The position numbers and the translations under genes are program-made. Positions 3,566 through 18,517 of a DNA stretch of 32,000 bases are shown here, piece after piece. Source of the stretch: Trichlorobacter lovleyi SZ. GTDB taxonomy: Bacteria; Desulfobacterota; Desulfuromonadia; Geobacterales; Pseudopelobacteraceae. Each line of letters starts with the position of its first letter. The stretch's first letter is position 1. The DNA lies in NCBI RefSeq assembly GCF_000020385.1, contig NC_010814.1:2220001-2252000 (forward strand). Reading direction: 5' to 3'. The notes below the pieces were generated by a model. It had not been told where the DNA came from. It did no database searches and was given only the letters and a program-made list of their open reading frames with translations.

Positions 3566-4432
3566 CTACACCCCATGCACCAATGAAAGAAAGAAGTCTT
3601 CCAGATTTTTCCGGCGTGGTTCAACCAGGACTATTTCACGACCAGTTGCGACCTGTTCAGCAAGAAAACGGTCAAGCAACTCTTTAGGCACCTCTTCATC
3701 CAGCACTGCTCCATCAGCATCCTTTAAACGGACCTGATAGCCAACTATGCCACGTGACATAATGGCATCCACCCGGTCCACCAGCTTTAGTTCACCATGC
3801 AGCAGAATACCTACACGGTCACAGACCTTTTCAACATCATCAGTAATATGGGTGCTGAAAAAAACAGATTTCCCGCGTTTTTTCAAATCAACGATAATTT
3901 CCTTCACCAGTGCCCGACCAATCGGGTCCAGACCACTCATCGGCTCATCCAGAATATAGACATCAGGATCATGAATCAGCACCTGCGCCAAACCGACCCG
4001 CTGCACCATCCCCTTGCTGTAGCCACGGATAGGACGCTTACGCGCTTCCCACAACTCAAGTTGTTTCAATACCTCTGCAGAGCGGCGGGTTAACAGTGCA
4101 TCAGGCATTTTGAATGTTTTACCCACAAACTGCAGATACTCTTCCGCTGTCAGATAATCATAAAAAGCCGGGTTCTCAGGCAAGTAACCGACATTACGAC
4201 GGGAAGCCTCTGACCCGATCGCCTCTCCCATAATTGAAGCAGTGCCGGATGTTGGCCGGATCAACCCCATCAAACATTTGATGGTCGTACTTTTACCGGC
4301 ACCGTTGGGGCCTAGAAAGCCGAACACCTCACCCTGCTCTATTGAAAGTGTCAGTCCCTTCAACGCCTCAACGGTCTGGCGTTTTTTACCTTTAAATGAT
4401 TTACTCAGACCCTGCATATCAAGAGCGTACAT
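3566..4432 (-). CDS. ABC transporter ATP-binding protein (ABC-2/DrrA-type exporter ATPase)
   Basis: It has Walker A GPNGAGKST, the signature YSKGMVQRV, Walker B ILDEPMSGLD and an H-loop (STH). A strong SD (GAGGTGA) lies 4-5 nt upstream of the ATG at 4432. Confidence 0.9.
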   Translation of the reverse strand: MYALDMQGLSKSFKGKKRQTVEALKGLTLSIEQGEVFGFLGPNGAGKSTTIKCLMGLIRPTSGTASIMGEAIGSEASRRNVGYLPENPAFYDYLTAEEYLQFVGKTFKMPDALLTRRSAEVLKQLELWEARKRPIRGYSKGMVQRVGLAQVLIHDPDVYILDEPMSGLDPIGRALVKEIIVDLKKRGKSVFFSTHITDDVEKVCDRVGILLHGELKLVDRVDAIMSRGIVGYQVRLKDADGAVLDEEVPKELLDRFLAEQVATGREIVLVEPRRKNLEDFFLSLVHGV

Positions 4433-4441
4433 CAGCTCACC

Positions 4442-5308
4442 TCACTTATTTTTTGTTGCAAAAGCAAACTTGCTGGTTGTTGTCACCTTGCCGGAGGGTT
4501 CAAGATAGAATCTTCCACCGTAGGGATCTGCCGGTGCCGGAGCAAGCAAACCGAGCTGCACCAATTGTTCAACAGAGACGGGTAAACCGCCATGCTCTGC
4601 CATAAATCTATCCCTTGCAATTTCAATTCGCTTGACTTCATAGAAGGCTGCCAACCGGATCTGGTAGTCTTTTTTTATAGATTGGTTTCTCTCACCTTTT
4701 TCAATAACTGTCAGATAGGCAATAGCCAAATCTGTCTGCCCTGATTCTTGCATATAACGTCCGGCAAGACTCTTGTGCAGTTCTTGACCACTTAAATCAG
4801 CGGCTCTCTTGTAATATGCAGCAGCTTTTGGATAGTCCTTTAAAAAATAGGCACTATTAAAGCCGGCAAAAAACGGTAGATACCAGTCCCAAGTACGGTA
4901 TTTCATACCGTAGTCAAGCAAGTCGTTAGCAACCTTAAACTGTTTGGCATCCCACGTTAGAAAACCTTGTGCGAAATAGTAGGCATCCATATTGTAGGGG
5001 TCTAGTTGCACAGCACCATGCAGCAATCGAGACATTCCCTGCAAATCAAGCGGCTCGCTGATCACCTTATCCTCTTGAGCCTTGCCTATAATGCCACCAA
5101 AGTACATCAACACCTTCATCACCAAAGATGCGCCTACCAACTCCTTTTGATCAGCACTCAGCGGCTTCAGAAGCTTCACACTGGGGACATATCCAAGCTT
5201 CTCCTCAATCGGCTTATTGGCCATATACGAGGAAAAAGGAACTATCAGCAGTCCATAGCAAAGCAGACCGCTAACCAGCAAAGCAACCGGAATACGCAGG
5301 CTGTTCAC
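4442..5308 (-). CDS. Membrane-anchored TPR-like protein encoded inside the ABC-2 exporter operon
   Basis: The 288-aa ORF has an N-terminal TM segment (IPVALLVSGLLCYGLLIV) followed by TPR-like helical repeats (DPYNMDAYYFAQGF..., YPKAAAYYKRAADL..., DLAIAYL). Its GTG start overlaps the permease stop (GTGA), and a 9-nt gap separates it from the ATPase gene. Confidence 0.6.
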   Translation of the reverse strand: MNSLRIPVALLVSGLLCYGLLIVPFSSYMANKPIEEKLGYVPSVKLLKPLSADQKELVGASLVMKVLMYFGGIIGKAQEDKVISEPLDLQGMSRLLHGAVQLDPYNMDAYYFAQGFLTWDAKQFKVANDLLDYGMKYRTWDWYLPFFAGFNSAYFLKDYPKAAAYYKRAADLSGQELHKSLAGRYMQESGQTDLAIAYLTVIEKGERNQSIKKDYQIRLAAFYEVKRIEIARDRFMAEHGGLPVSVEQLVQLGLLAPAPADPYGGRFYLEPSGKVTTTSKFAFATKNK

Positions 5309-6099
5309 TTCATTTCCCTCCGGTTAAACAGCAGAGCTGCACTACCCAGCAAAATGGCAGTGTAGCCAGCAAAGTAGCCCACAGTCATCGCAAGTCCTTG
5401 TGGATTGGGGGCAATACTGTATATCGCGTTCACCTTCAGATCAAATCCAGCCAGATTAGGCAACAGGTAATAAACGACTGACGCGACAGCCTTTAAAAAC
5501 GGTGAAACCGCCTGCACCGATGCCGTAGAGTGTACAAATTCATAGACTTGTTGAGTAATGCTACTGGCCAAAAATGTGCAGATGGAGCCAAAAACTGGCA
5601 AAAAGAAGGAAGTACTAACCGTGGAAAGCAGCATTGCCACTGCTACCAGCAGGATATACTTAAAGGTGATGAACAGTAAGGTCAGTAGCAGATAATTCCA
5701 GACAACGGGACGAGCAGGAGGATACATTCCTGACGCCACCTTGATCACCAGTAACGAAACCGCTCCAAGTACGGCTGAAGTCAGTATTAGGAACAGGGCC
5801 AAGCCCAAAAAACGGCCTAGCAGATAAGAACTACGGCTAAGAGGCAGGCTAAGTACGCTAAAGGTATAGCGTCGTTCCATATCCCTCCAGAGCGAGGTTG
5901 CCCCCAAAAAGACTGAAAGAAGCAACAGAATAAACGAGATCAGTGAAAGCGAGAGTGTAATAGAAAGCTCGGTTACCTGACGCATAGAAAGCGAGGCAGC
6001 TGAAGGAATAAAAAGAAACAAAACAGCCAAGGCCATGATCCCTTGGAATACTCGATCTCGAAAGATACCTATAAGCGTAATCTTCATAATGTTGGTCAT
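5305..6099 (-). CDS. ABC-2 family transporter permease
   Basis: The product is a polytopic hydrophobic protein with about 6 TM segments. It is translationally coupled to the downstream TPR gene and the ATPase. I prefer the ATG at 6099 (GGAG 8-11 nt upstream) over the TTG at 6117 used by the track. Confidence 0.75.
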   Translation of the reverse strand: MTNIMKITLIGIFRDRVFQGIMALAVLFLFIPSAASLSMRQVTELSITLSLSLISFILLLLSVFLGATSLWRDMERRYTFSVLSLPLSRSSYLLGRFLGLALFLILTSAVLGAVSLLVIKVASGMYPPARPVVWNYLLLTLLFITFKYILLVAVAMLLSTVSTSFFLPVFGSICTFLASSITQQVYEFVHSTASVQAVSPFLKAVASVVYYLLPNLAGFDLKVNAIYSIAPNPQGLAMTVGYFAGYTAILLGSAALLFNRREMK

Positions 6100-6184
6100 A
6101 AAAGCTACTCCGTTCAACTACAATATTATAGATTGATCCTGCCCACCATCGACACCGAAGTCCCTCAAGCAAAATTTAGATCTA

Positions 6185-7060
6185 TCAAAGCAAACCTTGT
6201 ATTAAGTCAGCAAGCTCTTGATTTGTTTTACGAATATTTTCCAAGTACTGCTGCGCCTTCTTGACCTTGCCTGCACTACCGAGCAACCTAATCAGGCCGC
6301 AATGCGCCTGAAATGACTCATTATCAAATTTTAAAGCACTTCTATACATAGTAAAAGCTTTAGCAAACTTATCATTTTTTTGGTAGAAATCTGCCATCAT
6401 CAGATACTCATCAACCCCAGCCATATCACGCTCTAGCAGCTGTTCACAGAATCTGATCGCTTCTACAAACTGCCCCAATTCCCAACATTCAGAGGCTATT
6501 TCAGCAAGATACAAACTTTCATCAACATGTTCTCGCTTTATAAGTCTCGCTTGAATATCACTTACAGCGTTAACATAATGCCTAATGGCAAATTTCTTTT
6601 CTTCTTCGCTTTTCTCTTGCCAATAAGGGTCCAAAAGCAAATTACAATCAAAATTAAAATCAACAGTCAGGGGATAGTGATCTAATCGGTTAATAAGTCT
6701 CCATTTTTTACTAAAATAATAAAAAGTTGCCTCTGATATAGCCCTGAGGTGAGTGGGATCCTGCCACGCCCTGATACTGGAATAATAAGGGGCGATAATT
6801 TCAGCTTTCGCGCCTACTTTCATAATGCGATACAGTTCATTAATAAAGGCGATGAGATCAGGAGTATGCTCAATGTAATGAGAGCAGAAAACCTCATCAA
6901 CACTATTATCTTCAAAAGGCCATGGGAATTGCCATAAATCAACGACAATATCCGCCCCCTCCCAAAGATCTACACCAACAAAACCGGGACGTTTGTTTTT
7001 CCCACACGCGATATCTAGCTTCAGCTCTCTTTGAATATCATCTCCAGCTATTTGCTGCAT
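6185..7060 (-). CDS. Class I SAM-dependent methyltransferase fused to a C-terminal TPR-like domain
   Basis: The N-terminal half has motif I LDIACG, post-I VGVD, and VDEVFCSHYIEH (Methyltransf_11/23-like). The C-terminal roughly 100 aa are TPR-like helices (GQFVEAIRFCEQLL..., DKFAKAFTMYRSALKFD..., GKVKKAQQYLENI). The start overlaps the stop of the upstream gene by 13 nt. Confidence 0.7.
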   Translation of the reverse strand: MQQIAGDDIQRELKLDIACGKNKRPGFVGVDLWEGADIVVDLWQFPWPFEDNSVDEVFCSHYIEHTPDLIAFINELYRIMKVGAKAEIIAPYYSSIRAWQDPTHLRAISEATFYYFSKKWRLINRLDHYPLTVDFNFDCNLLLDPYWQEKSEEEKKFAIRHYVNAVSDIQARLIKREHVDESLYLAEIASECWELGQFVEAIRFCEQLLERDMAGVDEYLMMADFYQKNDKFAKAFTMYRSALKFDNESFQAHCGLIRLLGSAGKVKKAQQYLENIRKTNQELADLIQGLL

Positions 7061-10000
7061 TTGTAGTCACTCCATATTTTATCAAGTGCGCTTTCAAAAG
7101 ATCGGGCAAAAAGTTCACCATCAAACAACGAAGAGTTGATAAAACATTCACGGATAGACTGTCGAAAATTTGGACGCTGGCAAATATTCTCAGCTAACAT
7201 AACCGCCCGATCAATATAATCGTTTCTATCTCTTGCAACTAGCTCTGATAATCCGATCCGATTTAAAATTGATGCTCCAACTCTTCCCGCATGTCGATCA
7301 CCTGTAAAAGTGACCACAGGGACCCCCATCCACAAGGCCTCACAGGTTGTAGTTGTACCATTATAGGGAAAGGTATCTAATGCTATATCGACATGCTGGT
7401 ACATACAAAGGTGTTCCTTGATATCGGGGGCTGCTGGTAACAAAATAATCCTATCCGATGTAATTCCAAACGCTGCAAACCCATCATAAAACTTTTGTTG
7501 TATAGATTGATCGGAGAAAAACCAGTTTTTCAACATTATGACTGAACCTTCAACTCTGTTAAGAATTGTAGCCCATGTTTCTATTACATAAGGAGACGTT
7601 TTAGAAATATTGTTAAATGAACCAAATGTGACACATCCTTTTCTGATACAAGGAAAGTCAGTAACATTTGGTGCCTCTTTCGGCGGTTCGTAACATAAGA
7701 AACCTTCAGAAAGTCTAACTAGCTTTTCAGTATACCATCTATCATCACCATCTACAGGGTCTGCTATATCGTCAGTAAATCTATAATCAATCTCTGTTAG
7801 GCCTGTAGTATTGGGGTAGCCCAACCATGAAACTTGTATAGGACTCGGCTTTGCAGCAAACACCTCCAACCTGTTTCTAGAAGTGTGACCCGCCAGATCA
7901 AATAAAATATGCACATGATTTTCTTTAATAACTTCAAACAACTCCTGATGAACAATGCCAAACACCTCATGCCATTCATCTGCATATGATTGCAAACGAT
8001 TTGTTACTTGGTCATTTTTAATTACATCAGAAAAACATACAATTTCGTATTTTTTCTTATCCAGATGACTAAATAACGGACCAAGAAAATAGGCCACAGA
8101 GTGTTTTCTAAAATCAGGCGAAACAAATCCAATTCTTAACTTCTCAGGTACGACAGCATCCTGGACTAACAAATCATTGTAATCAAGCGCACTTGCTTGC
8201 CACCCTATATACTGTTTCCAAGCAACACTTCTCGTATAGTATTCTTCCTGCGTGACTTTTGGAGTATAATTCATAAAAAGCAATTGGTTTGATCTAATAT
8301 GAAGCCTCTCGGGCTGTAATGCATAGGCCTTGTCATATGATTTACTTGCCTCAGACATGTTACCGCAAACCATTTGCAAACTTGCCTTATTATTCCATGC
8401 CTCAGCGTAACGATCTTCAATCTCAAGGGCCTTATCAAAACACTCAAATGCTTTGTTCAGCTGTCCAAGTGAGGAATAAACGAGCCCCAAGCTGTTGTGT
8501 GCAATAAAATTATTTTTGTCTAAAGCAATCGCCTTCTTAAACAATTTTTGGCTCGAGAGAGGATTATTTCGTTCCCTAGTGAAGTTCCCTTGTTGAGTAC
8601 ATAACTGTGCATACTCTATAGCTTGGTGAGTATTTTGTTCACCGCCCCCCCATAACTGAAACAGTAACTCTTCAACATCATGTGCGAACCTTCTCCCATC
8701 GCAAAGCGGAGAGTTAAGTAAAGCTGGACGTAATGAGTCTCGAAAAAACTGCAGTTTTTCAAGGTCAAAAGACAACTTTACTGCTGTTTCAATATATTCA
8801 TCTTTATTTGTTGTAACAAGTTCATAAAGCCCTAGTAAATCAAGAAATGTTTTGGTTTGCCTGCTTATTGGGGTAGTACCAGCCAGTGTAATTATTGGGA
8901 CCCCCATCCACAAAGCATTCAAACTTGTCATGCCTCCTGTAAAGGGAAATGTATCCAGCATGATATCAATATCTCCGTGTTCCATAAGCATGAGATATGG
9001 AGATGAAAATGTCCGAAACTCAATCCTACGGGGAGAAACTCCATACGTCGAAAATAGCTCTCTAAATCTTCGCCGAACAGACACATCCTTAAAGGTACTA
9101 AATTTTAAAACTAAACGGGACTTCGGCACCCTCTTCATAATATCAGACCATACTTCAACTACATTTTCTGAAATTTTCAAAGGATTGTTGAAACTACCAA
9201 AAGTTATGAATTCTGAATCAAGACAAGGAGATTCAACTACTTCTGGGCTAGGTGATGGTTGCACAAAACAAAAGCGGCTATACGGCAGACATACAACCCG
9301 TTCAACGAACCACTGTTCATCTTGCGGCTGTATAAAATCATTATCTGCAATTATATAGTCAATCGAATCCAGACCAGTTGTATGCCCGTATCCCATCCAT
9401 GTCATTTGAATAGTCGCTGGCCGAAAACAAAAAATCTGTATCCTGCTCTTAACGGTATGACCAGCAAGATCGATTAATATATCAATTTTATCGTTTCTAA
9501 TTATTTCAGCAGCGTCCTGATCACTTAAGGCCGTAATATCTCGCCATATAGCTGCTTTTTCTTGATAGCTATCGGTTATCTGGTCATGCCTACTACCGTT
9601 GCTATAACAAAACAATGAAAGTCGTTCAGAATTATAATTCTGGAACAGAGCAAGCAATAAAATACCAACCGGATGATGACAAAAATCTGGAGAGACAAAA
9701 CCAACTCGCAACAGCTTTTTCTTCTTACGCGGAAGACAGTCACTCCAAGGTTCAGCGTCAAGCTCTAAAACATCGGCTACTTGCCTGGACAGTTCAAAAA
9801 CATCACTTTGTTTGGCAGTAGCATCATAAAACAGAAACGACATCAAGGTTGTCAGCATCTCATAGTTAAAAGGAGATATCTCAACGCCTCTTTTAAGTGT
9901 CTGGACAGCCTTGGAAATATCACCCATTGCACCTTGGGCAAGCGCAAGATTTCCAATCGCCCCTAAATGATCGGGCGCTAGTTCTAGCGCACGCTCACAA

Positions 10001-12192
10001 CAAACTACTGAATCATGTATACGATCAAGAATCCTGTTAACAATACCCAGATTAACTAATGCGTGAGTATTTTCAGGACAAAGTTCAAGCACCTTAAGAA
10101 GATGCTTCCTGGCAAGCTGATGCCTAGCCACAGATAAGTACAGAATTCCAAGTTGCAGCCTAGACTCAAAACGTTTTGGATAACGTCGAACTCCAGCACG
10201 ATACATGCTTATGGCTTTTTCCAGCTGACCAAGTTTTTTATAAGCACCAGCCAACAGATTAATTGCTTCATAATGAGCCGGCTCTCGCTTAAGTAACTCT
10301 GTGAGCAATCTGATTGTATACTCTGGGTCTTCATCATTCAGAGCAACAGCCCCTGAAGAATAGAGTTCTTCAGGACTAAAATGTTCCAAAGATGCAGGAG
10401 AATCGCAATTTGTTTGCCAGTTTTCTAAAATTTCCTTATACAGAGTCTCCATGTTTTTAGCAAAAGCAAGGCCATCACATAAAGGGGAGCTTGCCATTTC
10501 TCTTCTCAAGTTCCTCCTCATTAATGACAATCTGTTTGGATCTAAAGCAAGATTTTGAGCAATTTGAACATAATCGTCTAAGGTAGACGCCACCAATTCA
10601 TGATGATCTATGGCATACAAAAATGCTTTGCTTTGACGACTAATAGGGGTTCCCATCTCAAGAGTAACAACCGGAACTCCCATCCAGAGTGCTTCACAAG
10701 TACTAGCGCCACCATTGTACGGAAAAGGGTCCAGAGCTATATCTATTTCTCCGTATTCCTGAAGCATTTCATAGTGAGACGATAATTTTTTAAAAATAAT
10801 CCTGTTAGACGAAATACCATGTATTTTAAAACGACGTATAAAATCATCTACAACGACATCATCACTGAAAGATTTGGATTTGAGAAGCAGCTTTGAATGA
10901 GATACGGCATGTAAAACTCTAGACCACGCATCAACAACCTCTGCCGTTAGTTTGTGGATTGAGTTAAAGGAGCCAAAGGTAATATATCCATTTTTCAAAC
11001 ATGGAGCGGCAGTTGTTGGAGGAGTGTAGGGCATCGGTTCATAACAGAACCTGCACACAGGCAATCGAACAATCTGCTCCGCAAAAAACAGATCATCCTT
11101 CAAAGGGATTGTAATCGGATCGCTAATAAGATAGTCAATGGATTCCAAGCCTGTGGTATTAAAATATCCCAACCAGGTGACTTGCACAGGAGCCGGTTTT
11201 TGAGCAAAGAGTCCTAACCTGTTGAACCCAGTATGACCGGCAAGATCCACCAGAATATCAATACAATCACAACGGATCAACTTTGCAGCCTGAGTATCTG
11301 ATAAGTTATATATATCCCTCATGGCTGCGACATTGCCGGCCAATGTCTCGGTAACCTCGTCTCTCAAAGGAAATGAGTTGTAGAGATATATTTCAAACGT
11401 GTCTTTGTCATGATTTAGAAGGAGTGGTTTTAAATAGTAAACAACCGGATGCAGCTTAAAATCACCTGAGACATAGCCAACTCTAATTTTACGTTCCCTG
11501 CATACAGAATTTAAATATCCGCGATTAGATCTATTTTGATTATCGTAATTTTTTTGTGCCAGTTGCACTGTTTTTTGATAAATATCCTGCTGGCTGAATT
11601 CCGGTAGTAGGTTCATTGTAAATAAAACACTAGATATCAGAGCATCTGTTGCCCGTAATTTCACCCCGTGACTAAAATAAGTGTATGCTTCTTCTGGCTT
11701 ACCAAATGAAAGCATAAGACTACCCAAATTTTGATAATTTAACGCAATGTCAGGGCAAAGCTGCAATGCTTTGGTGCAAAACTCTTGTGCCTCTTCTGTC
11801 TCTCCCTTGGTAATCAACACTGACGCAAGTAATGCCATTGTTTTTGCATTTTCAGGTGCGAGTTTCAGCACTTGCCTATAAAGCTGCTCAGACTCTTCAA
11901 AGAGGAGCATTCCAGACAGAATAACACCCAGATTTTGCAAGGCATCCGCATAACCTGGCTTAAGTTTTATTGCCTCACGAATGAGCTGTTCGCCGACTTC
12001 AAATTCACCAGTCCTGTAGCGAAGCATTCCCATCGCATGCAGGATTCTTGGATTATCATGAAAAGCAACTGACAACTCTTCACAAATTTTTAAGGCATCA
12101 TGCAACTTGCCACTATCCGCAAGTCCATTAATTAGCTTAAACTGTTCATCTATAGATGTTTCACTGATCTTCGTTACATTTTTTAAGTTCAT
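7048..12192 (-). CDS. Giant protein with three tandem TPR + GT41 (O-GlcNAc transferase / SPINDLY-like) glycosyltransferase modules
   Basis: The 1714-aa ORF contains three colinear repeats. Each has TPR helices followed by R(V/I)G(Y/F)VS.DF..H.V ... DLAGHT...F...P.P(V/I)Q(V/M).W.GY..TTGL..IDY ... TFGSFN...K ... D.(F/P)PY/F.G..T...ALWMGVP(V/I)(V/I)T ... SPLCDG/SSLFDG. These closely parallel human OGT segments as I recall them (GYVSSDFGNHP; RPAPIQAMWLGYPGTSG; FNQLYK; GHTTGMDVLWAGTPMVT). Confidence 0.8.
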   Translation of the reverse strand: MNLKNVTKISETSIDEQFKLINGLADSGKLHDALKICEELSVAFHDNPRILHAMGMLRYRTGEFEVGEQLIREAIKLKPGYADALQNLGVILSGMLLFEESEQLYRQVLKLAPENAKTMALLASVLITKGETEEAQEFCTKALQLCPDIALNYQNLGSLMLSFGKPEEAYTYFSHGVKLRATDALISSVLFTMNLLPEFSQQDIYQKTVQLAQKNYDNQNRSNRGYLNSVCRERKIRVGYVSGDFKLHPVVYYLKPLLLNHDKDTFEIYLYNSFPLRDEVTETLAGNVAAMRDIYNLSDTQAAKLIRCDCIDILVDLAGHTGFNRLGLFAQKPAPVQVTWLGYFNTTGLESIDYLISDPITIPLKDDLFFAEQIVRLPVCRFCYEPMPYTPPTTAAPCLKNGYITFGSFNSIHKLTAEVVDAWSRVLHAVSHSKLLLKSKSFSDDVVVDDFIRRFKIHGISSNRIIFKKLSSHYEMLQEYGEIDIALDPFPYNGGASTCEALWMGVPVVTLEMGTPISRQSKAFLYAIDHHELVASTLDDYVQIAQNLALDPNRLSLMRRNLRREMASSPLCDGLAFAKNMETLYKEILENWQTNCDSPASLEHFSPEELYSSGAVALNDEDPEYTIRLLTELLKREPAHYEAINLLAGAYKKLGQLEKAISMYRAGVRRYPKRFESRLQLGILYLSVARHQLARKHLLKVLELCPENTHALVNLGIVNRILDRIHDSVVCCERALELAPDHLGAIGNLALAQGAMGDISKAVQTLKRGVEISPFNYEMLTTLMSFLFYDATAKQSDVFELSRQVADVLELDAEPWSDCLPRKKKKLLRVGFVSPDFCHHPVGILLLALFQNYNSERLSLFCYSNGSRHDQITDSYQEKAAIWRDITALSDQDAAEIIRNDKIDILIDLAGHTVKSRIQIFCFRPATIQMTWMGYGHTTGLDSIDYIIADNDFIQPQDEQWFVERVVCLPYSRFCFVQPSPSPEVVESPCLDSEFITFGSFNNPLKISENVVEVWSDIMKRVPKSRLVLKFSTFKDVSVRRRFRELFSTYGVSPRRIEFRTFSSPYLMLMEHGDIDIMLDTFPFTGGMTSLNALWMGVPIITLAGTTPISRQTKTFLDLLGLYELVTTNKDEYIETAVKLSFDLEKLQFFRDSLRPALLNSPLCDGRRFAHDVEELLFQLWGGGEQNTHQAIEYAQLCTQQGNFTRERNNPLSSQKLFKKAIALDKNNFIAHNSLGLVYSSLGQLNKAFECFDKALEIEDRYAEAWNNKASLQMVCGNMSEASKSYDKAYALQPERLHIRSNQLLFMNYTPKVTQEEYYTRSVAWKQYIGWQASALDYNDLLVQDAVVPEKLRIGFVSPDFRKHSVAYFLGPLFSHLDKKKYEIVCFSDVIKNDQVTNRLQSYADEWHEVFGIVHQELFEVIKENHVHILFDLAGHTSRNRLEVFAAKPSPIQVSWLGYPNTTGLTEIDYRFTDDIADPVDGDDRWYTEKLVRLSEGFLCYEPPKEAPNVTDFPCIRKGCVTFGSFNNISKTSPYVIETWATILNRVEGSVIMLKNWFFSDQSIQQKFYDGFAAFGITSDRIILLPAAPDIKEHLCMYQHVDIALDTFPYNGTTTTCEALWMGVPVVTFTGDRHAGRVGASILNRIGLSELVARDRNDYIDRAVMLAENICQRPNFRQSIRECFINSSLFDGELFARSFESALDKIWSDYKCSK

Positions 12193-14083
12193 GTTTCAAT
12201 AGCCCCAGATTTTTTTTGCCTTTGGGTGATTTCTCAGAAATAATCGTTACAGCCGCATCAAAATATTGTTTGGCCGCCTCACATTTATTTATCTGTGTTG
12301 AAGCAATTATGCCTGAATAAAAAAGATTTAGATCTTCAGACAGCCTGTAATGTTCAACAAGATATTCAAGTTCAAGACCTTTCAATACTACATCGTATTT
12401 TGTTCTTGCTGAAATCTGTTCATCCTGCATCTCTCTAATTAGTAAAACTGTAGCTTTTAAAGTAGAAACTAGATTTCTGGATTTACGAGCCAACGCCTTT
12501 TGATACAGACATAATGCCGTATTATACATCTTCTTTTCCCTTAACTTTGAAGCGATCATCACTTCCGCCTGTTCGTCAAAGTCAGGAGATGGCAGCAGGG
12601 TCGATGCATCAGAATATTCGTCCAGAGCTTCATCCGTAAACCCTTTTTCAACCAAAGCATGTATATAAATATTTCTCAATTTTCTTATTTTCTGATTTTG
12701 TGACACCGTATCCTGAAAGAGTGTCACATTGGACACCCAGGTTTGGTTACGGCTAAAGGTTATACAAGCAGCTATTAAGCAGATGGATGCTAAAAGCGCA
12801 TAAATATAACGTGACGGAAATGTTTTGATGTTTTGTATTTTTTCAATCCAGAGGCATAATCCAATTATAAAAAATGCAGTTGAAAGGTAAATATACCGCT
12901 CGGCATATGCTGTCCATGCAATAGTACCAAAAACAAAAGGCAAAGCAGGTAATAATAGACTTAAACCGAGCAATAAAAAAATAGATGCCAATGTACGCTT
13001 ATGCAATAAAAATGCAGTTAAGAGCAAAACAGCTATACCAATGAAGTCGTATAATGGATCTATTTCAAGTATAAAAAAATTTAATGGCAAGGGTATAAAA
13101 AACTTCTTTACATAAAAACCTAGTGCACCAATGAACATTGATAGTGTGTAGTTTTTATCAGCTAGCATCAGGATGATTGTTTGCGATATTTTATTGACGC
13201 TAGACAGAAAAACAACCTGGCGTATCAGAAAAAACAGACCAACTGCTACAGACATAAATATAATTAATAAAACAAATTTTTTCCAAAAAACTGCTGATAA
13301 AAAATTAATTCCATTTTTGTAATCAGTAGAAACTATATGTAGAAAATATAAAAGCACCAGAACTGCTACAGCCCAATAACATCCAGTGAACAATGCGACT
13401 AGAAACGAAATAGAATAGTAGCCAAGGTATAAACGCCAATCAAACAAGCGTGTTTCTTGTATAGCCCCATCAGAGCGCGTATATATTACCAGCAACGAAA
13501 CTCCAATCAGAAAGCCAAAAGCGGCTTCTTTTGCTAAAAGAGCAAAAAAAACCGCAATAATAGAGACTAGCAATGCAATCTTTGACTTCTTGTGTAAAAA
13601 ATATAGATACGACAATGTGCCCGCAAGAATAAACGTACCCATCATAACATCGGTTCTGCCAGACAACCAGTTCACTGATTCAGTGGTAATGGGATGCAGT
13701 GTAAAAAGAAGAGCTGAAAAAAGCGGCAAATAATATATATGCTGCCTGTTTACAAGATTAAGCGCAGTTCTGGTAATATAAAAAACTAAAATGCCGTTTA
13801 AAAGGTGTGCAACAACACTCTCAAAATGCATAATCTGATGTTGTAAAAACCATAGTTTTTTATCAAGCAGGTAGCTTAAGCCAATTAATGGCCGGTAGTA
13901 CCCTCCCCCCATATTCTGAGGCGAAAAAATATTACGTAGAGAACTGGTATCACTACCAAATACGCCAGCTAAAGCGCCCAGGTCATCAACAAGGCAAATT
14001 TCGCCAAACTGAGTTGGATAAAACACCAGTAGAACTAATGCACTAATCGCCATAATTTGAAACGTAACAGACAATTTTTGCAT
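12161..14083 (-). CDS. GT-C fold membrane glycosyltransferase (TMTC/PMT-like) with C-terminal TPR domain
   Basis: The 640-aa ORF has roughly 10 or more TM segments. An acidic DD motif follows TM1 (EICLVDDLGAL), then YYRPLIGLSYLLD and HPITTESVNWLSGRTDVMMG, a pattern typical of TMTC/PMT-family enzymes (D-D/E loop, YRPL, HP..TE.V.W...R.D). The last roughly 170 aa are TPR-like. The stop overlaps the next gene's start by 32 nt. Confidence 0.75.
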   Translation of the reverse strand: MQKLSVTFQIMAISALVLLVFYPTQFGEICLVDDLGALAGVFGSDTSSLRNIFSPQNMGGGYYRPLIGLSYLLDKKLWFLQHQIMHFESVVAHLLNGILVFYITRTALNLVNRQHIYYLPLFSALLFTLHPITTESVNWLSGRTDVMMGTFILAGTLSYLYFLHKKSKIALLVSIIAVFFALLAKEAAFGFLIGVSLLVIYTRSDGAIQETRLFDWRLYLGYYSISFLVALFTGCYWAVAVLVLLYFLHIVSTDYKNGINFLSAVFWKKFVLLIIFMSVAVGLFFLIRQVVFLSSVNKISQTIILMLADKNYTLSMFIGALGFYVKKFFIPLPLNFFILEIDPLYDFIGIAVLLLTAFLLHKRTLASIFLLLGLSLLLPALPFVFGTIAWTAYAERYIYLSTAFFIIGLCLWIEKIQNIKTFPSRYIYALLASICLIAACITFSRNQTWVSNVTLFQDTVSQNQKIRKLRNIYIHALVEKGFTDEALDEYSDASTLLPSPDFDEQAEVMIASKLREKKMYNTALCLYQKALARKSRNLVSTLKATVLLIREMQDEQISARTKYDVVLKGLELEYLVEHYRLSEDLNLFYSGIIASTQINKCEAAKQYFDAAVTIISEKSPKGKKNLGLLKHELKKCNEDQ

Positions 14084-14109
14084 ATTCGGCCTTGTTTGAG
14101 ATATTTGCT

Positions 14110-14150
14110 AAAAAAAAGGGTTGGCACAAAATAGCCAACCCTTTAAAAAA
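14110..14150 (-). terminator. Strong (bidirectional-looking) intrinsic terminator immediately after the PilA-C-like gene
   Basis: The minus strand reads UUUUUUUAAAGGGUUGGC-UAUUUUGU-GCCAACCCUUUUUUUU. The GC-rich core stem is 8 bp (GGGUUGGC/GCCAACCC) and can extend by A-U pairs, and a U8 tract follows. It sits 16 nt after the pilA-C stop and about 27 nt before the next ATG. Confidence 0.75.
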
Positions 14151-14165
14151 ACTATAACCTTGAAA

Positions 14166-14525
14166 CTACATAGAAGTCCAATCAGTTCCCGTAAAACTTG
14201 TATTTGTGGCAATTGCTGATGCAACAGACGTAGCATTTCCAGGGGTTGTTGTCTTAAAATAGAGCTTTGCATCACTCTGGTTACTTGCAATGGCCTTATC
14301 CCCCTGACCATGGGCAGCAGCAATACCGTATGCCGTACCAGCAAAACCGGTAGAAACACCTGAGTCAGATACATAGTAGGCGCTAACCTTGTTAGATGAA
14401 GAAAAACTACTACCTCCTACAGATGTAGCACCGGAAAGAGTAAGAGTTGCAGCATAAGAAGCAGAAGCTGCAACCATACTGAGAACAACCACAACAGCTA
14501 ATTTTAGCATATTTTTCTTTGCCAT
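14166..14525 (-). CDS. PilA-C-like secreted Ser/Thr/Gly-rich protein (second half of a split Geobacter-type pilin)
   Basis: The 119-aa ORF has a Sec signal peptide (MAKKNMLKLAVVVVLSMVAASASYA|AT). The mature part is about one third Ser+Thr by my count (31/94). An AAAGGAG SD lies 8 nt upstream, and the gene is 43 nt downstream of pilA-N with no terminator between them. Position and size match the PilA-C (GSU1497-type) partner of truncated geopilins. Confidence 0.75.
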   Translation of the reverse strand: MAKKNMLKLAVVVVLSMVAASASYAATLTLSGATSVGGSSFSSSNKVSAYYVSDSGVSTGFAGTAYGIAAAHGQGDKAIASNQSDAKLYFKTTTPGNATSVASAIATNTSFTGTDWTSM

Positions 14526-14568
14526 GATTTAATATCTCCTTTCTTGGAAAACTTAAATAAAAATGGAC

Positions 14569-14781
14569 TTAGGAACCAGGATATCCTTGACGATCTGCAA
14601 AAACAGACTCAAGAACGGTTTTCAGGTTACGCAAATCACTGGTTGCGTTTGAATTGTAACCCTTGATACGATAGGTTGTAAACTGGGGGATGGCCACGGC
14701 TGCCAGGATGCCGATGATCGCCACAACGATCAGCAGCTCGATGAGGGTGAAGCCTTTTCTGTTCCGAATCTTGTTTAGCAT
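14569..14781 (-). CDS. pilA: Truncated type IVa pilin PilA-N (geopilin)
   Basis: The sequence is MLNKIRNRKG|FTLIELLIVVAIIGILAAVAIPQF..., with a class III signal peptide, the G|F cleavage site and Glu5. The 60-aa mature protein has aromatics at F1, F24, Y27, Y32, F51 and Y57, the same positions as G. sulfurreducens PilA as I recall it. An AAAGGAG SD is present. Confidence 0.93.
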   Translation of the reverse strand: MLNKIRNRKGFTLIELLIVVAIIGILAAVAIPQFTTYRIKGYNSNATSDLRNLKTVLESVFADRQGYPGS

Positions 14782-14804
14782 AGATTCTTCTCCTTTCTGG
14801 TTGT

Positions 14805-14822
14805 CCTGCTGTATATAGCAGG
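14805..14822 (-). promoter_or_regulatory. Perfect 6-bp inverted repeat / 5'-UTR hairpin upstream of pilA-N
   Basis: CCTGCT-GTATAT-AGCAGG lies between the predicted sigma54 promoter and the SD. Its function is unknown; mRNA stability or an operator are possibilities. Confidence 0.3.
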
Positions 14823-14866
14823 TGTAAATTTAAACTGACTACTTAGTTGGAATCAGCTAAAGTTTA

Positions 14867-14882
14867 AGCAAAATACAAGCCA
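14867..14882 (-). promoter_or_regulatory. Sigma54 (RpoN) -24/-12 promoter for pilA-N
   Basis: The minus strand reads TGGCTT-GTATT-TTGCT against the consensus TGGCAC-N5-TTGCW. GG and GC have correct spacing and 9 of the 11 specified consensus positions match. It lies about 85 nt upstream of the pilA-N ATG. Geobacter pilA is known to be RpoN/PilR dependent. Confidence 0.6.
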
Positions 14883-14964
14883 ACATAAAAAAAGAACTAA
14901 CTATCAGTCTTCACGCAACTTTATCCATCCATATTGGAAAACAGTCTAGCATAGGCATGCTGTT

Positions 14965-14992
14965 TGTCAAGCCGCGCTGACATTTTTTGTCA
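14965..14992 (-). promoter_or_regulatory. Candidate enhancer-binding-protein site (TGTCA-N8-TGACA palindrome plus a third TGTCA half-site)
   Basis: The sequence is TGTCA(14965-69)-AGCCGCGC-TGACA(14978-82)-TTTTT-TGTCA(14988-92). It lies about 85-110 bp upstream of the -24/-12 element, the usual UAS distance for NtrC-family activators. Confidence 0.3.
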
Positions 14993-15179
14993 ACGACGTT
15001 CACTTCAACCATATAAGCTGATTGAAGTGGTTGCGGTTTTTGAGACATGAGTATTATCAACGAACCAATCCCCTTAAAAGGAGAGGTCCCATGCAGCACC
15101 GCACCCGTTTCTACCCACTCAATTCGACAAAGAACCTTTTGTTCTTTAAGCCTTACTCTACCTACGGCACCAAAAAACT

Positions 15180-16820
15180 TCAATATCTCTGCTCCATCCT
15201 GGGCACATACCACCTGATCAGATTATGCCCAATCCCAGCAGGGGCAGGCTCTATGCCGCGAATACGAGACGAAACAACCGGCAGCGCATCTGGCACATAA
15301 AGGAAGGTGTAGGGTTGTTCCTCAGCCAGGATATCCTGAATCCGGTAGTAGGCCTGTTTACGTTTTTCAATATCAAAGGTGCTACGCCCTTCTTCCAGCA
15401 GACGGTCCACTTCAGGGTTGTTGTAGCCGATAAAATTCAGCTCCCCTGGTTTGGTCTTGCTGGAATGCCAGATGTCGTACATATCCGGATCCTGTGAGGT
15501 AAGCCAGGCCAGCAGCACCACCTCAAAATTACCTTTGTCAATAAACTCTTTCAGGAAAGCAGCCCATTCCACAACCCTGATCCGTACATCAATTCCGACC
15601 TGTTTCAGGCGTTGCTGAATAATCTGGGCTGTCATCAAGCGTTGCTGATTCCCCTGGTTTGTCAGGATGGTAAAACGCAGCGGTTTGCCGTCTTTTTGCA
15701 AAAAACCGTCCGGTCCGGCCTGCCATCCCGCTTCTGCCAGCAGCTGCCGGGCATAGGCCGGGTCATAGGCAATATCCTTCACATTCGGGTTATGCGCCCA
15801 TCGGCCTGGTATCATCGGACCATTGGCCTTTTGTCCCATGCCAAACAGCACCCCCTGGATCAGTTCCTGTTTGTTGATGGCAGCGGTTATGGCACGACGG
15901 ACACGTGTATCTTTGAACGTCGGATGGCGCAGATTGTAGCCAAGGTAGAGGTAGCCATTTGACGGGTAACGATATTTGTTAAAGGCAGATTTGAAACGCG
16001 ACGAATCGGTCTGCCTGGCAAATTGCACCGGGGTCAACCCCATCTGATCAATGCCGCCAGCCTTCAGCTCCATATACATGGTGGAAGTATCAGGAATCAA
16101 ACGAAAAACGTATCGATCAAGATAGGGACGCCCTTCAAAGTAGTCCTTGTTGGCCTCCAGCACGATTTTCTGGCCAGCCACCCACTCTGCAAAACGGAAC
16201 GGCCCGGTGCCGACAGGCTTGCGGGCCAGTGGACTCCTGGTGATATCCTGTCCTTCCAGTAGATGGCTGGGCAGGACCGCCACGCCCCACGAGGCAAGGG
16301 ATGGCGCATAGGGCCTTGCATAACGTACCACCACAGTATGAGCATCCGGTGCCGCAACCGCAGCAACCTGTTTGAAGTCTTCTGAATAGGCAGTGGGGGT
16401 TTTGGGATCAATAATGACACGGTAGGTATAGAGCACATCACGTGACGTAAACGGCTTGCCATCATGCCAGGTGACGTTACGACGCAGCTTGAAGGTAATG
16501 GTCAGGCCATCGGATGAGACCAGATATGATTCTGCAAGGTCACCGACAATTTTGAGGTTTTTGTCGTATTTTATCAGGCCGTTGTAGATCAGACCTGCCA
16601 CGCTGTGGGAGGCACTGTCAGAGGCAAGAATGGGGATCAGGGTGGATGCTTCACCAATGGTACCCTCAACCAGCGTGTCGCCGTAGGCCGGTGGTGCTGC
16701 AGAAACGTTCTGCTTGGCGGGAGGGGCCTCACTACCTGTGCAGGCTGCACACAGCAGCCAGAGAACAACCGGTAAGGTGGCACGCAGACAGAAGCTTCGA
16801 AACCCGCCCTTTACGGTCAT
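15180..16820 (-). CDS. ABC transporter substrate-binding lipoprotein, family 5 (peptide/nickel/opine type)
   Basis: The 546-aa ORF has a lipobox (LLCAAC|TGS) and family-5 SBP-like sequence throughout (e.g. GPFRFAEWVAGQKIVLEANKDYFEGRPYLD, PDMYDIWHSS). It overlaps the upstream TPR gene by 4 nt. Confidence 0.88.
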   Translation of the reverse strand: MTVKGGFRSFCLRATLPVVLWLLCAACTGSEAPPAKQNVSAAPPAYGDTLVEGTIGEASTLIPILASDSASHSVAGLIYNGLIKYDKNLKIVGDLAESYLVSSDGLTITFKLRRNVTWHDGKPFTSRDVLYTYRVIIDPKTPTAYSEDFKQVAAVAAPDAHTVVVRYARPYAPSLASWGVAVLPSHLLEGQDITRSPLARKPVGTGPFRFAEWVAGQKIVLEANKDYFEGRPYLDRYVFRLIPDTSTMYMELKAGGIDQMGLTPVQFARQTDSSRFKSAFNKYRYPSNGYLYLGYNLRHPTFKDTRVRRAITAAINKQELIQGVLFGMGQKANGPMIPGRWAHNPNVKDIAYDPAYARQLLAEAGWQAGPDGFLQKDGKPLRFTILTNQGNQQRLMTAQIIQQRLKQVGIDVRIRVVEWAAFLKEFIDKGNFEVVLLAWLTSQDPDMYDIWHSSKTKPGELNFIGYNNPEVDRLLEEGRSTFDIEKRKQAYYRIQDILAEEQPYTFLYVPDALPVVSSRIRGIEPAPAGIGHNLIRWYVPRMEQRY

Positions 16821-18517
16821 TTTTCTTCCAGTTCTCCGCGCAGAATCCGCCTGATTTTTTCATCCAAACCCTTTTTACGGGGATCCAAAGCCCGTGCCTT
16901 TTTGTAGTATTTCAGGGCATGTTTCGGTTCCTTGCGGGCAAGATGGGCATCCCCGAGATGTTCAAGAATAGTCGGGTCATCAGCCACCAGCTCAACTGAT
17001 TTTTCAAGATACCGGACAGCATCATCGTAGCGTTTCATCTGGTAATAGACCCAGCCCAGGCTATCAATGAAAAAACCATCATCCGGTCTGATTTCCAGGG
17101 CTCGTTTGACATGGGTCAGCGCTTCTTCAAGGTTGATTCCCATTTCAGCATAGGTATAGCCAAGAAAGTTGTGAGCCTGGGCATCCTTGGGATTTAACAC
17201 CACAACTTTTTTCATCCGTTCGATGGATTCCGGACGTTTGCCAAGCTTGTCGTATAATATTCCCATTCTGAACTGAAACCTGGGATCATCGGCGAAGCGC
17301 GCCTCAACCCCCTGCAGCAGCTTAAGACCTTCTGCAGGATGCTGCAGAGCATCGTGGAGTGTTGCCAGAGAGAGATACAGATCAAGCTTGTCCTGGTTGG
17401 CGGCAATCGTCTGCTCCAACAGCCTGACAGCCTCATCCCCTCTGCCCAGTTCTTTATAGATGAACGCCAAATGGCCAACCGCTTCAGGATAAACCGGTGC
17501 ATCGGCCGGAATTTTATGAAATTCTACAACAGCCCGCTCAAGCTCGTTCTTTTCTTCAAAAGCACTCCCCAGATAGAGCCGAATCTGGTGTGCATCCGGA
17601 TCGGTCTCCAGCATTTGAGAGAATACTTTAATTGCATCATCGTACTGTTCAAGCTCCAGATAGATCAAACCGATTTTACGATTGGTCTCGGCTGTTGCCA
17701 GACCCATCTGATCCAGCTTCTTGAGATAGGTCAAGGCATCCTCATAACGCCTGTTCTGTATAAACAGCTGAATCAGGTGTTGAATCAGAGGAGCCCGGTT
17801 TTCTGCATCCTCAAGGGCATTTTTGTATGCTGCAATCGCCTTGTCATACTCCCCGAGCGCCTCGTACGAAATAGCCATATCAATGGTTGCCTGAATAAAT
17901 TCCGGCCTCAGTTCAAGCGCTTTCTGATAATAGCCGATTGATTCCCGGTACAACTTCATCTGGCTGTAGACTTTGGCCAGATAGTAATTACCTACGGCAG
18001 ATTCCGGCTTAACTTTAATCAATGATTTCAGCACAGTTACCGACTCTTCATATTCAAAAAGCTGCATCAGAGTCGTCACCAGGTGCAATACGGCATCTTC
18101 CTTGCCCGGCTCAAGCCTGACCGCATTCCGGAGGTAGGCCGCGGCCTCCTTGGTCTTACCCATTGTGGACATGATACTGCCGCCCAGTAGATAGGAAGGT
18201 CGATAATCAGGTGCCACCTTAATAGCACGGTCAACAGCGGCCAGAGAGTCTTGCACACGGCCTGATTTCAGCAATATTTCAGCTTCCAGCAGGATCGGAT
18301 AGGGCGTGACAGGATCGGCGGTTTGGGCCTGACGTGTCAGTATCAGGGCCTGTTCAACGTTTCCTTCGTTCCAGAAAAGACGGGCTTGGGCATAGGCGCC
18401 CAGTCCACTATGGAGATGAGCAGAGGCGACACCATCCTCTGGAGAATCGGCAGGACGAACAGAACCGCAGGCTGCAAGCAGACAGAGACCAACACAGCAA
18501 AGCAAGTATCGTAACAT
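16817..18517 (-). CDS. TPR-repeat lipoprotein
   Basis: The 566-aa ORF has a lipobox (CLLAAC|GS) followed by about 12-14 consecutive TPR units (repeated A..Y..AL...P pattern). Confidence 0.8.
   Translation of the reverse strand: MLRYLLCCVGLCLLAACGSVRPADSPEDGVASAHLHSGLGAYAQARLFWNEGNVEQALILTRQAQTADPVTPYPILLEAEILLKSGRVQDSLAAVDRAIKVAPDYRPSYLLGGSIMSTMGKTKEAAAYLRNAVRLEPGKEDAVLHLVTTLMQLFEYEESVTVLKSLIKVKPESAVGNYYLAKVYSQMKLYRESIGYYQKALELRPEFIQATIDMAISYEALGEYDKAIAAYKNALEDAENRAPLIQHLIQLFIQNRRYEDALTYLKKLDQMGLATAETNRKIGLIYLELEQYDDAIKVFSQMLETDPDAHQIRLYLGSAFEEKNELERAVVEFHKIPADAPVYPEAVGHLAFIYKELGRGDEAVRLLEQTIAANQDKLDLYLSLATLHDALQHPAEGLKLLQGVEARFADDPRFQFRMGILYDKLGKRPESIERMKKVVVLNPKDAQAHNFLGYTYAEMGINLEEALTHVKRALEIRPDDGFFIDSLGWVYYQMKRYDDAVRYLEKSVELVADDPTILEHLGDAHLARKEPKHALKYYKKARALDPRKKGLDEKIRRILRGELEEK

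Follow-up and report, generated by a model that had tools for sequence, protein, structure and literature searches.

A three-headed SPINDLY-like glycosyltransferase in a replaceable pilin cassette of Trichlorobacter lovleyi SZ

The window considered here is a 32,000-nucleotide stretch of Trichlorobacter lovleyi SZ, an organism both cultured and sequenced (contig NC_010814.1, positions 2,220,001 to 2,252,000). It contains a gene, designated 3xGT41, whose 1714-residue product consists of three modules (M1, M2 and M3), each composed of a tetratricopeptide repeat (TPR) arm and a complete catalytic domain of glycosyltransferase family 41 (GT41). The three catalytic heads are under purifying selection and their donor pockets differ from one another. 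The gene belongs to a low-GC cassette that also encodes the pilin-like proteins PilA-N and PilA-C; related GT41 genes are linked to pilin genes in other genomes. With moderate confidence we propose that 3xGT41 is a cytoplasmic, multi-active-site pilus glycosyltransferase that acts chiefly on PilA-C, its substrate, donors and timing being what we infer from relatives and gene context.

Architecture and donor pockets of the three modules

3xGT41 is translated from a minus-strand open reading frame (ORF) with an ATG start. The labels given to the protein (B3E3J0) in public records go no further than "OGT, SPINDLY family protein" and "TPR protein." An initial annotation, made from the DNA letters, had described three complete TPR-GT41 modules in the polypeptide, and domain scans bear this out. 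When the segments are scanned separately, the Pfam model Glyco_transf_41 (PF13844, gathering cut-off 25 bits) scores 166.3 bits in M1, 168.8 in M2 and 195.1 in M3, and a profile scan finds that each module has its own run of TPRs. The best match of every module among PDB sequences is Arabidopsis SPINDLY (SPY), with E-values of 6e-99 (M1), 4e-86 (M2) and 1e-127 (M3). The alignment is colinear and runs in one stretch of about 500 residues per module (517 for M3); the Thermobaculum "OGT" 5DJS, human OGT and XcOGT follow as the next matches. The match of the modules to the GT41 family is thus far beyond chance. Neither a signal peptide nor a transmembrane segment is evident at the N-terminus of the protein.

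The modules share only 36, 36, and 33% identity in pairwise protein comparisons, and blastn between them finds no meaningful DNA similarity. The triplication or fusion is therefore old, as had been supposed, and a recent DNA repeat is ruled out as the origin of the modules. An AlphaFold2 model covering M1-M2 was built with 35 orthologues, M3 being judged by its sequence alone. The model has a pLDDT of 90.1 and a pTM of 0.69, the latter too low for a firm statement about module packing. In each module of the model about 11 TPR-type helices are followed by two α/β lobes. The solved structures that the model matches best are SPY with GDP-fucose, with a TMt of 0.85 and a root-mean-square deviation (rmsd) of 3.2 Å, and Thermobaculum OGT (TtOGT), with a TMt of 0.92 and an rmsd of 2.1 Å. 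The predicted fold, in which the TPR superhelix lies directly N-terminal to a two-lobed GT-B domain, therefore superposes on solved GT41 structures and agrees with the modules as first described.

Active-site residues were compared with SPY residues 328-844, rebuilt from a printed alignment whose numbering was verified against 21 published residues. H248, H840, and H1364 align with SPY H495, and K414, K1006, and K1531 with SPY K665, which correspond to human OGT H558 (the histidine of DFGNHP) and K842, respectively (Zhu et al., 2022, PMC9715652). The residue equivalences drawn by the initial annotation are therefore correct. It had also called the histidine a catalytic-site residue, and here one correction applies: the GT41 motif histidine is now viewed as structural rather than as a catalytic base, whereas the lysine is essential (Zhu et al., 2022, PMC9715652).

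The donor pockets of the modules can be read against the GDP-fucose contacts listed for SPY, in which K665, K689, E752, Y744, V497, and I592 are indispensable and E752A abolishes activity (Kumar et al., 2023, PMC10027727). At the SPY contact and signature positions the residues are H P V L N S K K M Y G A S E in M1, H P V M N N K K M F G M T N in M2, and H S V L N N K K H Y T T T E in M3. M3 equals SPY at all 10 signature positions (HSKKHYTTTE) and is identical to the GDP-fucose contact set (S496, V497, I592, N662, K665, K689, H728, Y744, T747, T748, E752) except for I592L, so that it alone among the three carries the full pocket. M1 departs from this set at P249, S411, M476, G495 and A496, and M2 at P841, M1068, F1084, G1087, M1088, and N1092. 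The base-stacking histidine is thereby replaced by methionine in both modules, and T747/T748 by G-A in M1 and G-M in M2. The initial annotation suggested that the heads might add different sugars or act at different sites, which fits three mutually different pockets.

Two clan signatures have been defined in the family, K689/A731/Y744 for SPY-like and L866/R904/C917 for OGT/SEC-like proteins (Kumar et al., 2023, PMC10027727). The SPY-like positions read K/E/Y in M1, K/E/F in M2, and K/M/Y in M3, so that two of three are matched in M1 and M3 and one in M2. In sequence, this pattern resembles the "intermediate" prokaryotic group of Kumar et al. (2023). No residue of the OGT/SEC signature occurs in any module. 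Human OGT, moreover, aligns only as separate N-Cat and C-Cat pieces (query 233-383 with OGT 553-705, query 400-589 with OGT 838-1024), and in the PDB alignments the intervening domain between them is absent from all three modules. Because both the signature residues and this domain are lacking, and every module has its closest relatives in SPINDLY and the compact SPY-like proteins of bacteria, the "OGT" label of the initial annotation is dismissed. By these sequence criteria the protein is a SPINDLY-like GT41 enzyme, for which the name "OGT" should not be used. The NGT equivalog model NF049992 gives M3 70.4 bits against a cut-off of 1000.

Conservation of the deviating pockets was measured over 40 M1-type and 40 M2-type units. 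They come from 35 two-unit proteins orthologous to M1-M2 (53-59% identity per unit) and five colinear M1-M2-M3 orthologues, all found among the 120 best hits of a database search. In both unit types D, H, P, K665, K689, M728, G747, and T749 (SPY numbering) are invariant or nearly so; M1-type units have E or D at position 752, and M2-type units have in addition an invariant F744 and a near-invariant M748. This argues that the M1 and M2 pockets are conserved alternatives and have not decayed. Against an 85%-identical orthologue (locus L001), the ratio of nonsynonymous to synonymous divergence (dN/dS) of the catalytic regions is 0.121 in M1, 0.109 in M2 and 0.125 in M3, and that of the TPR arms 0.135-0.20. 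Since the catalytic regions lie at 0.11-0.13, all three heads are maintained by purifying selection. Catalytic competence is a reasonable reading of these sequences for M1 and M3, and doubtful for M2 over ribose binding. The initial judgement that all three heads are competent is thus sustained by the retained histidines and lysines and by selection, and is too strong for M2.

In the same comparison synonymous divergence (dS) is about 0.9-1.1 over residues 1-792 (M1 and the M2 TPRs) and about 0.27-0.32 over the M2 catalytic region and M3. The breakpoint lies inside the gene near residue 790 (about nt 9820), which suggests recombination within 3xGT41; modules or half-modules may be swapped between alleles.

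Multi-headed GT41 proteins and the third head

GT41 enzymes such as OGT, SPINDLY, and HMW1C have been studied as single-site enzymes, and the initial annotation stated that the characterised members have one catalytic unit. This agrees with the literature searched, which covers few subscription-journal papers and holds no paper describing multi-unit GT41 proteins. The architecture itself is widespread. With a profile hidden Markov model of the catalytic region used to count units, all 120 best hits of a 5.8-billion-protein search are multi-unit (36 with two units, 43 with three and 41 with four). One catalytic unit as query retrieves 20,695 proteins at E<=1e-30 from a 1.84-billion-protein representative library clustered at 50% identity, and the best 150 of these all carry two to six matched GT41 stretches. 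A unique three-headed architecture is therefore dismissed. The initial annotation had itself allowed that its finding would weaken if multi-GT41 proteins proved common and already characterised; they are common, which weakens the finding, although in the literature searched none is characterised. Fusions with two to six heads thus appear, as far as we can tell from this literature, to be a large, diverse and uncharacterised class.

Among the at least 600 matches listed in a genome scan are sequences from Geobacteraceae, Planctomycetota, Cyanobacteria, Alpha-, Beta-, and Gammaproteobacteria, Nitrospirota, and Verrucomicrobiota. Six-unit ORFs of 3750-3769 residues occur in two Geobacteraceae-type metagenome-assembled genomes (MAGs), and one of 4891 residues in a cyanobacterial MAG (L009). 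The six-unit ORFs of L011 (7937-19186) and L014 (3073-14379) lie in pilin loci, where each precedes a separate single-unit gene of SPY type, and the representative library holds five- and six-unit proteins of 3000-3850 residues (P0241-P0244, P0252).

The heads of such proteins are mostly intact and mostly different, so that one may ask how a single substrate is served by several cooperating active sites. The histidine together with lysine or arginine is kept in 732 of 765 heads of multi-unit proteins, and heads of differing pocket signature are combined in 102/121 two-unit and 74/94 three-unit proteins. An alignment of 365 catalytic units (P0001-P0120) contains K665R in 108, N662R in 115, Y744H in 109, and K689N or K689D in 109; the K665R-type heads form a large and distinct pocket class, found mainly in three- and four-unit proteins.

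Four-headed proteins also occur next to giant ORFs. In Hyphomicrobium (L085, CP115706, 1-17641) a 4xGT41 gene follows an ORF of 5975 residues, and in Phenylobacterium (L086, CP073078, 2557-17467) one of 2175 residues, neither ORF having a Pfam match. In both loci the GT41 gene also comes directly after that of a 253-residue sugar O-methyltransferase of the RMNT_CmcI type, with dTDP/GDP-deoxysugar genes nearby. They may be glycosylation systems for giant surface proteins and would, by analogy, fit a general role of multi-GT41 proteins and methyltransferases in decorating large surface proteins.

The third head seems to have a separate history. The nearest non-orthologous relatives of M3 (49-51% identity) include ordinary single-unit bacterial proteins, while M1 and M2, to judge from their orthologues, are a dedicated pair. 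Pilin loci contain exactly one head in which the SPY signature (HSKKHYTTTE) is complete. In the window, L002 and L003 this head ends the fusion, and in L004, L007, L011, and L014 it is encoded by a separate gene directly downstream. The three-headed protein thus looks like a two-headed protein fused to an adjacent SPY-type gene, and the alternation between fused head and separate neighbour marks the heads, at the level of gene organization, as components of one functional unit. L004 further encodes, downstream of its 3xGT41 gene, an 817-residue protein (15122-17575) that joins a Glycos_transf_2 domain to a SPY-type GT41 unit; GT41 heads are hence also fused to other glycosyltransferase families.

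The pilin cassette and the proposed function

The cassette that contains 3xGT41 is delimited by comparison with the complete genome of another T. lovleyi (CP058409). Both flanks are 90-91% identical between the two. The cassette has a GC content of 39%, compared with 50-53% for the flanks, and at the DNA level its only similarity to CP058409 is 210 nt of pilA-N. At the same site CP058409 carries a different cassette encoding two short pilins, a 106-residue PilA-C-like protein, a 3xGT41 of 34% identity, and a membrane partner of 38% identity (E 2e-114) that lies on the opposite side of its GT41 gene. From the low GC, the conserved flanks and the different cassette in CP058409 it follows that 3xGT41 is part of a replaceable pilin-plus-modification cassette. 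The two tandem PilA-N-like genes of CP058409 (L003, 8914-9545; 70 and 71 residues) contrast with the single one in SZ, and L004 also has two.

Linkage to pilin genes extends beyond T. lovleyi. Loci were fetched from the matches listed in the genome scan, and their six-frame ORFs were searched with the window proteins. All 13 Geobacteraceae-type loci whose flank is usable (the window, L001-L008, L010, L011, L014, and L050) have GT41 genes adjoining homologues of PilA-N and PilA-C. The number of heads in these loci is one, two, three or six, and a homologue of the membrane protein is present in 12 of them, being missing from the short L008. The combination of GT41 with PilA-N/PilA-C is seen in no other taxon among the loci sampled. 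One of the 13, L007 (JBAYZR010000131.1), is labelled as a Pedobacter sp. MAG. Its pilA-N/pilA-C cassette is of Geobacter type and includes a two-unit GT41 gene and a separate SPY-type ORF; the Bacteroidota label is probably a binning error.

In SZ pilA-N and pilA-C lie 2-2.6 kb upstream of the GT41 gene, in the same cassette and on the same strand. PilA-N is nearly invariant between cassettes, whereas the PilA-C-like proteins diverge strongly and have mature parts with 25-38% Ser+Thr. The mature SZ protein has 33% Ser+Thr and three NxS/T sequons; searches of Pfam (at E<=10), NCBIfam, and PDB sequences gave nothing useful for it. In the Geobacter pilus, PilA-C makes up the outer surface (PMC10710030).

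The remaining cassette genes encode a membrane protein and a methyltransferase. The 640-residue membrane protein has no match in Pfam at E<=10 or among PDB sequences, and NCBIfam gave nothing useful for it. It shares with its homologues an invariant D33-D34 after the first transmembrane segment; a UniRef label reads "RgtA/B/C/D-like," and a few homologues give weak matches to PF13231 (PMT_2). Foldseek with a model of the protein (pLDDT 85.7) is dominated by TPR matches, the only membrane-enzyme matches being PglB/STT3 at a TMq of about 0.30 and E > 1e-3. By these resemblances the protein is likely, though not established, to be of GT-C (PMT_2/RgtA-D-like) type. Elsewhere, multi-GT41 proteins occur with fused class I methyltransferase domains; a BLAST link of the cassette methyltransferase to such domains exists for one protein only (P0278, 37% over 108 residues), the others being related at the level of the Pfam family.

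Just outside the cassette lies an ABC-2 exporter. In G. sulfurreducens the genes that come after pilA-N/pilA-C, GSU1498-1508, make up the xap polysaccharide cluster, which includes the ABC ATPase XapD; the exporter of the window sits where the xap exporter does, as part of the conserved backbone. A 288-residue protein encoded between its permease and ATPase is kept in all exporter-bearing loci (E 1e-75 to 4e-182 in L002-L004, L006, L010, and L050) and is probably, on this conservation, a third exporter subunit.

Precedents for the proposed function are the cyanobacterial Ogt/OgtA proteins and HMW1C. Synpcc7942_0051 (Ogt) of Synechococcus elongatus and OgtA of Nostoc punctiforme are single-headed, cytoplasmic TPR-GT41 enzymes encoded beside pilA; they are needed for pilin glycosylation and piliation, depend on the catalytic lysine, and in 77 of 201 genomes the gene shows synteny with pilin genes (PMC9306852). 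By analogy they would be the closest functional counterparts of the Trichlorobacter protein, with which they share a TPR-GT41 gene adjacent to pilin genes. They differ in having one head, a reported UDP-GlcNAc donor and full-length pilins, against three heads, split PilA-N/PilA-C and an additional GT-C-like protein and methyltransferase in Trichlorobacter, where the system is known from its genes alone. HMW1C/NGT enzymes are likewise cytoplasmic GT41 proteins whose gene lies beside that of the substrate. HMW1C modifies many sites of a secreted surface protein ahead of its Sec export; these enzymes can add hexose onto hexose, and have at the sugar-gate position the Phe that is also found in M2. 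Unlike the modules described here they lack a TPR arm, and their glycosylation is N-linked.

On this basis 3xGT41 would be a soluble cytoplasmic enzyme of three fused SPINDLY-like units, each with its own short TPR arm, that glycosylates the subunits of the pilus before they are exported, mainly PilA-C, the surface subunit rich in Ser and Thr. M3 would be the canonical SPY-type head, with a pocket suited to a small or 6-deoxy hexose linked to GDP. Other donors or sites would fall to M1 and M2, so that the three heads probably differ in donor and/or acceptor specificity, and the co-translated methyltransferase probably methylates the sugar. The genes for PilA-N, PilA-C, the GT-C-like membrane protein, 3xGT41, and the methyltransferase would then form one horizontally exchanged pilus cassette. 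The proposal predicts that PilA-N/PilA-C pili bear strain-specific, possibly methylated O-glycans set by a swappable cassette. If this is true, it bears on pilus surface chemistry, on adhesion and phage or predator recognition, and on the disputed pilus and nanowire preparations.

The structural relatives set the protein in context. Arabidopsis SPY (PDB 7Y4I, 8DTF-8DTI) shares with it a TPR arm that runs straight into the N-Cat and C-Cat lobes and, with M3, also contact N661; in SPY numbering M1 and M2 have instead P496, M728, G747, A or M748 and, in M2, N752, and A731 of SPY is E, E, and M in M1, M2, and M3. SPY differs further as a homodimer with one catalytic unit and 11 TPRs that acts in eukaryotic nucleocytoplasmic signalling, against three units here that have 3-5 TPRs apiece. 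Thermobaculum terrenum "OGT" (5DJS) and XcOGT (2JLB/2VSN) resemble each module in size and in having about 3-5 TPRs and a catalytic domain, and share with M1 and M3 the Tyr at the sugar-gate position. The fold match of the model with XcOGT is about 0.80 (TMt). Both are single units whose natural substrates and donors are unclear. Metazoan OGT, including the human enzyme, and plant SEC share the GT41 fold, the DFxxH histidine and the FNxxxK lysine; they differ in the features absent here, and match the fold less well (TMt 0.55-0.67).

Bacterial surface structures offer further parallels. In Pseudomonas aeruginosa pilA travels with tfpO or tfpW, the latter encoding a GT-C membrane enzyme, and the pilin and modification genes form strain-specific alleles bordered on both sides by conserved DNA. 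In O-antigen and S-layer glycan systems (WbdA/WbdD/Wzm-Wzt and WsaE) several glycosyltransferase domains and a methyltransferase are encoded beside an ABC-2 exporter. Genes of all three types, for a multi-glycosyltransferase polypeptide, an adjacent ABC-2 exporter and a methyltransferase, are present here, but the glycosyltransferase family differs and the exporter lies outside the variable cassette. The Pseudomonas and WbdA/WsaE systems employ O-oligosaccharyltransferases, GT-C enzymes or GT2/GT4 enzymes on lipid carriers, and no GT41 heads.

Several points weigh against a pilus glycosyltransferase. Gene neighbourhood is circumstantial evidence for a substrate, and the literature searched holds no report of glycosylation of Geobacter or Trichlorobacter PilA-N/C. 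Cytoplasmic glycosylation would have to precede export, as is known for HMW1, since PilA-C is Sec-exported and PilA-N inserted in the membrane. The bacterial SPY/OGT-like proteins TtOGT and XcOGT are barely active or inactive in vitro, O-GlcNAc transfer being slight or undetected. The model also leaves the membrane partner and the adjacent ABC-2 exporter without a needed role, and in M2 the ribose-binding acid (SPY E752) is N1092, at a position that is unconstrained in the 40 M2-type units (F11 E7 L7 H6 N5 Y3).

The main rival explanation is a glycan polymerase, a possibility with some weight that we nonetheless consider rather unlikely. The heads would build a lipid-linked or free oligo- or polysaccharide, which the methyltransferase caps, the ABC-2 system exports and the GT-C-like protein transfers to a periplasmic acceptor; this could be PilA-C or a Xap-like matrix polysaccharide. 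Such a scheme uses all neighbours and explains the conserved partners better than pilus glycosylation does: the membrane partner co-occurs with GT41 in pilin loci, and the exporter is always adjacent, at the xap exporter position. Moreover, no further glycosyltransferase gene is found in the locus by a Pfam scan of the neighbouring ORFs, a multi-glycosyltransferase polypeptide with a methyltransferase is typical of ABC-transporter-dependent pathways, and hexose-hexose bonds are within reach of a GT41 enzyme (HMW1C). Every characterised GT41 enzyme, however, is protein-directed, and each head keeps a TPR arm, the protein-binding device of the family. The exporter does not co-vary with the heads, because it lies in the 91%-conserved backbone, and the GT-C assignment of the membrane protein is weakly supported. 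No initiating phosphoglycosyltransferase or lipid-carrier family occurs among the Pfam matches of the neighbouring ORFs, although one could be encoded elsewhere in the genome. The pilin cassette context, which the initial annotation did not see, favours protein (pilus) glycosylation over the free trisaccharide-repeat polymerase that the initial annotation had offered.

The same observation on M2 would suit a mixed-function fusion, in which M3 and perhaps M1 are catalytic and M2 is a pseudo-enzyme scaffold or an acceptor- or nucleotide-binding module. N1092 replaces a glutamate essential in SPY, and the base-stacking and T747/T748 substitutions of M1 and M2 point the same way. Yet orthologues keep D836, H840, N1002, N1003, K1006, K1030, and T1089 of M2 with little or no variation, neither of the other two catalytic regions has so low a dN/dS, and the deviating M1068, F1084, G1087, and M1088 are themselves invariant, as expected of a functional alternative pocket; we hold this fusion to be unlikely. 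General intracellular regulatory O-glycosylation in the style of plant SPY or animal OGT, with an incidental proximity to pilin genes, is very improbable. The closeness in sequence and fold to SPINDLY, a nucleocytoplasmic regulator, and the lack of an export signal would be in keeping with it, but the gene resides in a low-GC, strain-variable cassette that moves with pilin genes, one to six heads occupy the same locus in different strains, as is typical of surface-structure diversification, and the pilin linkage holds in all 13 Geobacteraceae-type loci examined.

A more specific form of pilus glycosylation, put forward tentatively and as a doubtful one, is an assembly line. The SPY-type head, which is M3 here and may be fused or separately encoded, would start a Ser/Thr glycan on the pilus surface subunit and one to six heads of the "HP...M...G.T" type would extend it sugar by sugar, so that the number, type and order of heads encode a strain-specific glycan and the cassette is exchanged with its pilin. 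If true, this would be a modular logic like that of nonribosomal peptide and polyketide synthases, but for protein O-glycans.

Features of the locus

Coordinates of the modules, their active-site codons and the neighbouring genes are collected in Table 1.

Table 1. Features of the 3xGT41 locus, in window coordinates; amino acid numbers refer to 3xGT41.
Feature	Position	Strand	Remarks
3xGT41 gene	7048-12192	-	ACD95809.1 / WP_012470148.1 / UniProt B3E3J0, T. lovleyi SZ (exact-sequence look-up)
M1, aa 1-592	10417-12192	-	about 5 TPRs + GT41 catalytic domain
M2, aa 593-1181	8650-10416	-	about 5 TPRs + GT41 catalytic domain
M3, aa 1182-1714	7051-8649	-	about 3 TPRs + GT41 catalytic domain
H248 codon (M1)	11449-11451	-	SPY H495 / human OGT H558
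H840 codon (M2)	9673-9675	-	SPY H495 / human OGT H558
H1364 codon (M3)	8101-8103	-	SPY H495 / human OGT H558
K414 codon (M1)	10951-10953	-	SPY K665 / human OGT K842, essential
K1006 codon (M2)	9175-9177	-	SPY K665 / human OGT K842, essential
K1531 codon (M3)	7600-7602	-	SPY K665 / human OGT K842, essential
M1 pocket residues			H248 P249 K414 K438 M476 Y492 G495 A496 S497 E500
M2 pocket residues			H840 P841 K1006 K1030 M1068 F1084 G1087 M1088 T1089 N1092
M3 pocket residues			H1364 S1365 V1366 N1527 N1528 K1531 K1555 H1594 Y1610 T1613-T1615 E1618
Low-GC replacement cassette, 9.1 kb	6099-15176	.	GC and comparison with CP058409
PilA-N-like short type IV pilin, 70 aa	14569-14781	-	N_methyl motif, FTLIELLIVVAIIGILAA
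PilA-C-like protein, 119 aa, signal peptide	14166-14525	-	ACD95811.1; candidate glycosylation substrate
Terminator-like hairpin, 11-bp stem + T-run	14115-14144	-	between pilA-C and membrane-protein gene
Polytopic membrane protein, 640 aa, C-terminal TPR-like helices	12161-14083	-	stop overlaps GT41 start by 32 nt
S-adenosylmethionine (SAM) methyltransferase (Methyltransf_11) + C-terminal TPRs, 291 aa	6185-7060	-	start overlaps GT41 stop by 13 nt
ABC-2 exporter, backbone, just outside cassette	3566-6117	-	Pfam and locus comparison
ABC2_membrane_2 permease	5305-6117	-	exporter part
288-aa protein, no known family	4442-5308	-	between permease and ATPase
Exporter ATPase	3566-4432	-	exporter part

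The strong hairpin downstream of pilA-C would permit high expression of the pilin genes, while read-through into the genes for the membrane protein, GT41 and the methyltransferase would be attenuated. Farther along the window, a 1082-residue GAF-SpoIIE phosphatase (18961-22209, plus strand) is encoded. Next to it, a 566-residue protein made up entirely of TPRs and an SBP_bac_5 protein border the pilin cassette; the syntenic T. lovleyi locus has partner-switching genes with STAS and HATPase_c domains beside the GAF-SpoIIE phosphatase.

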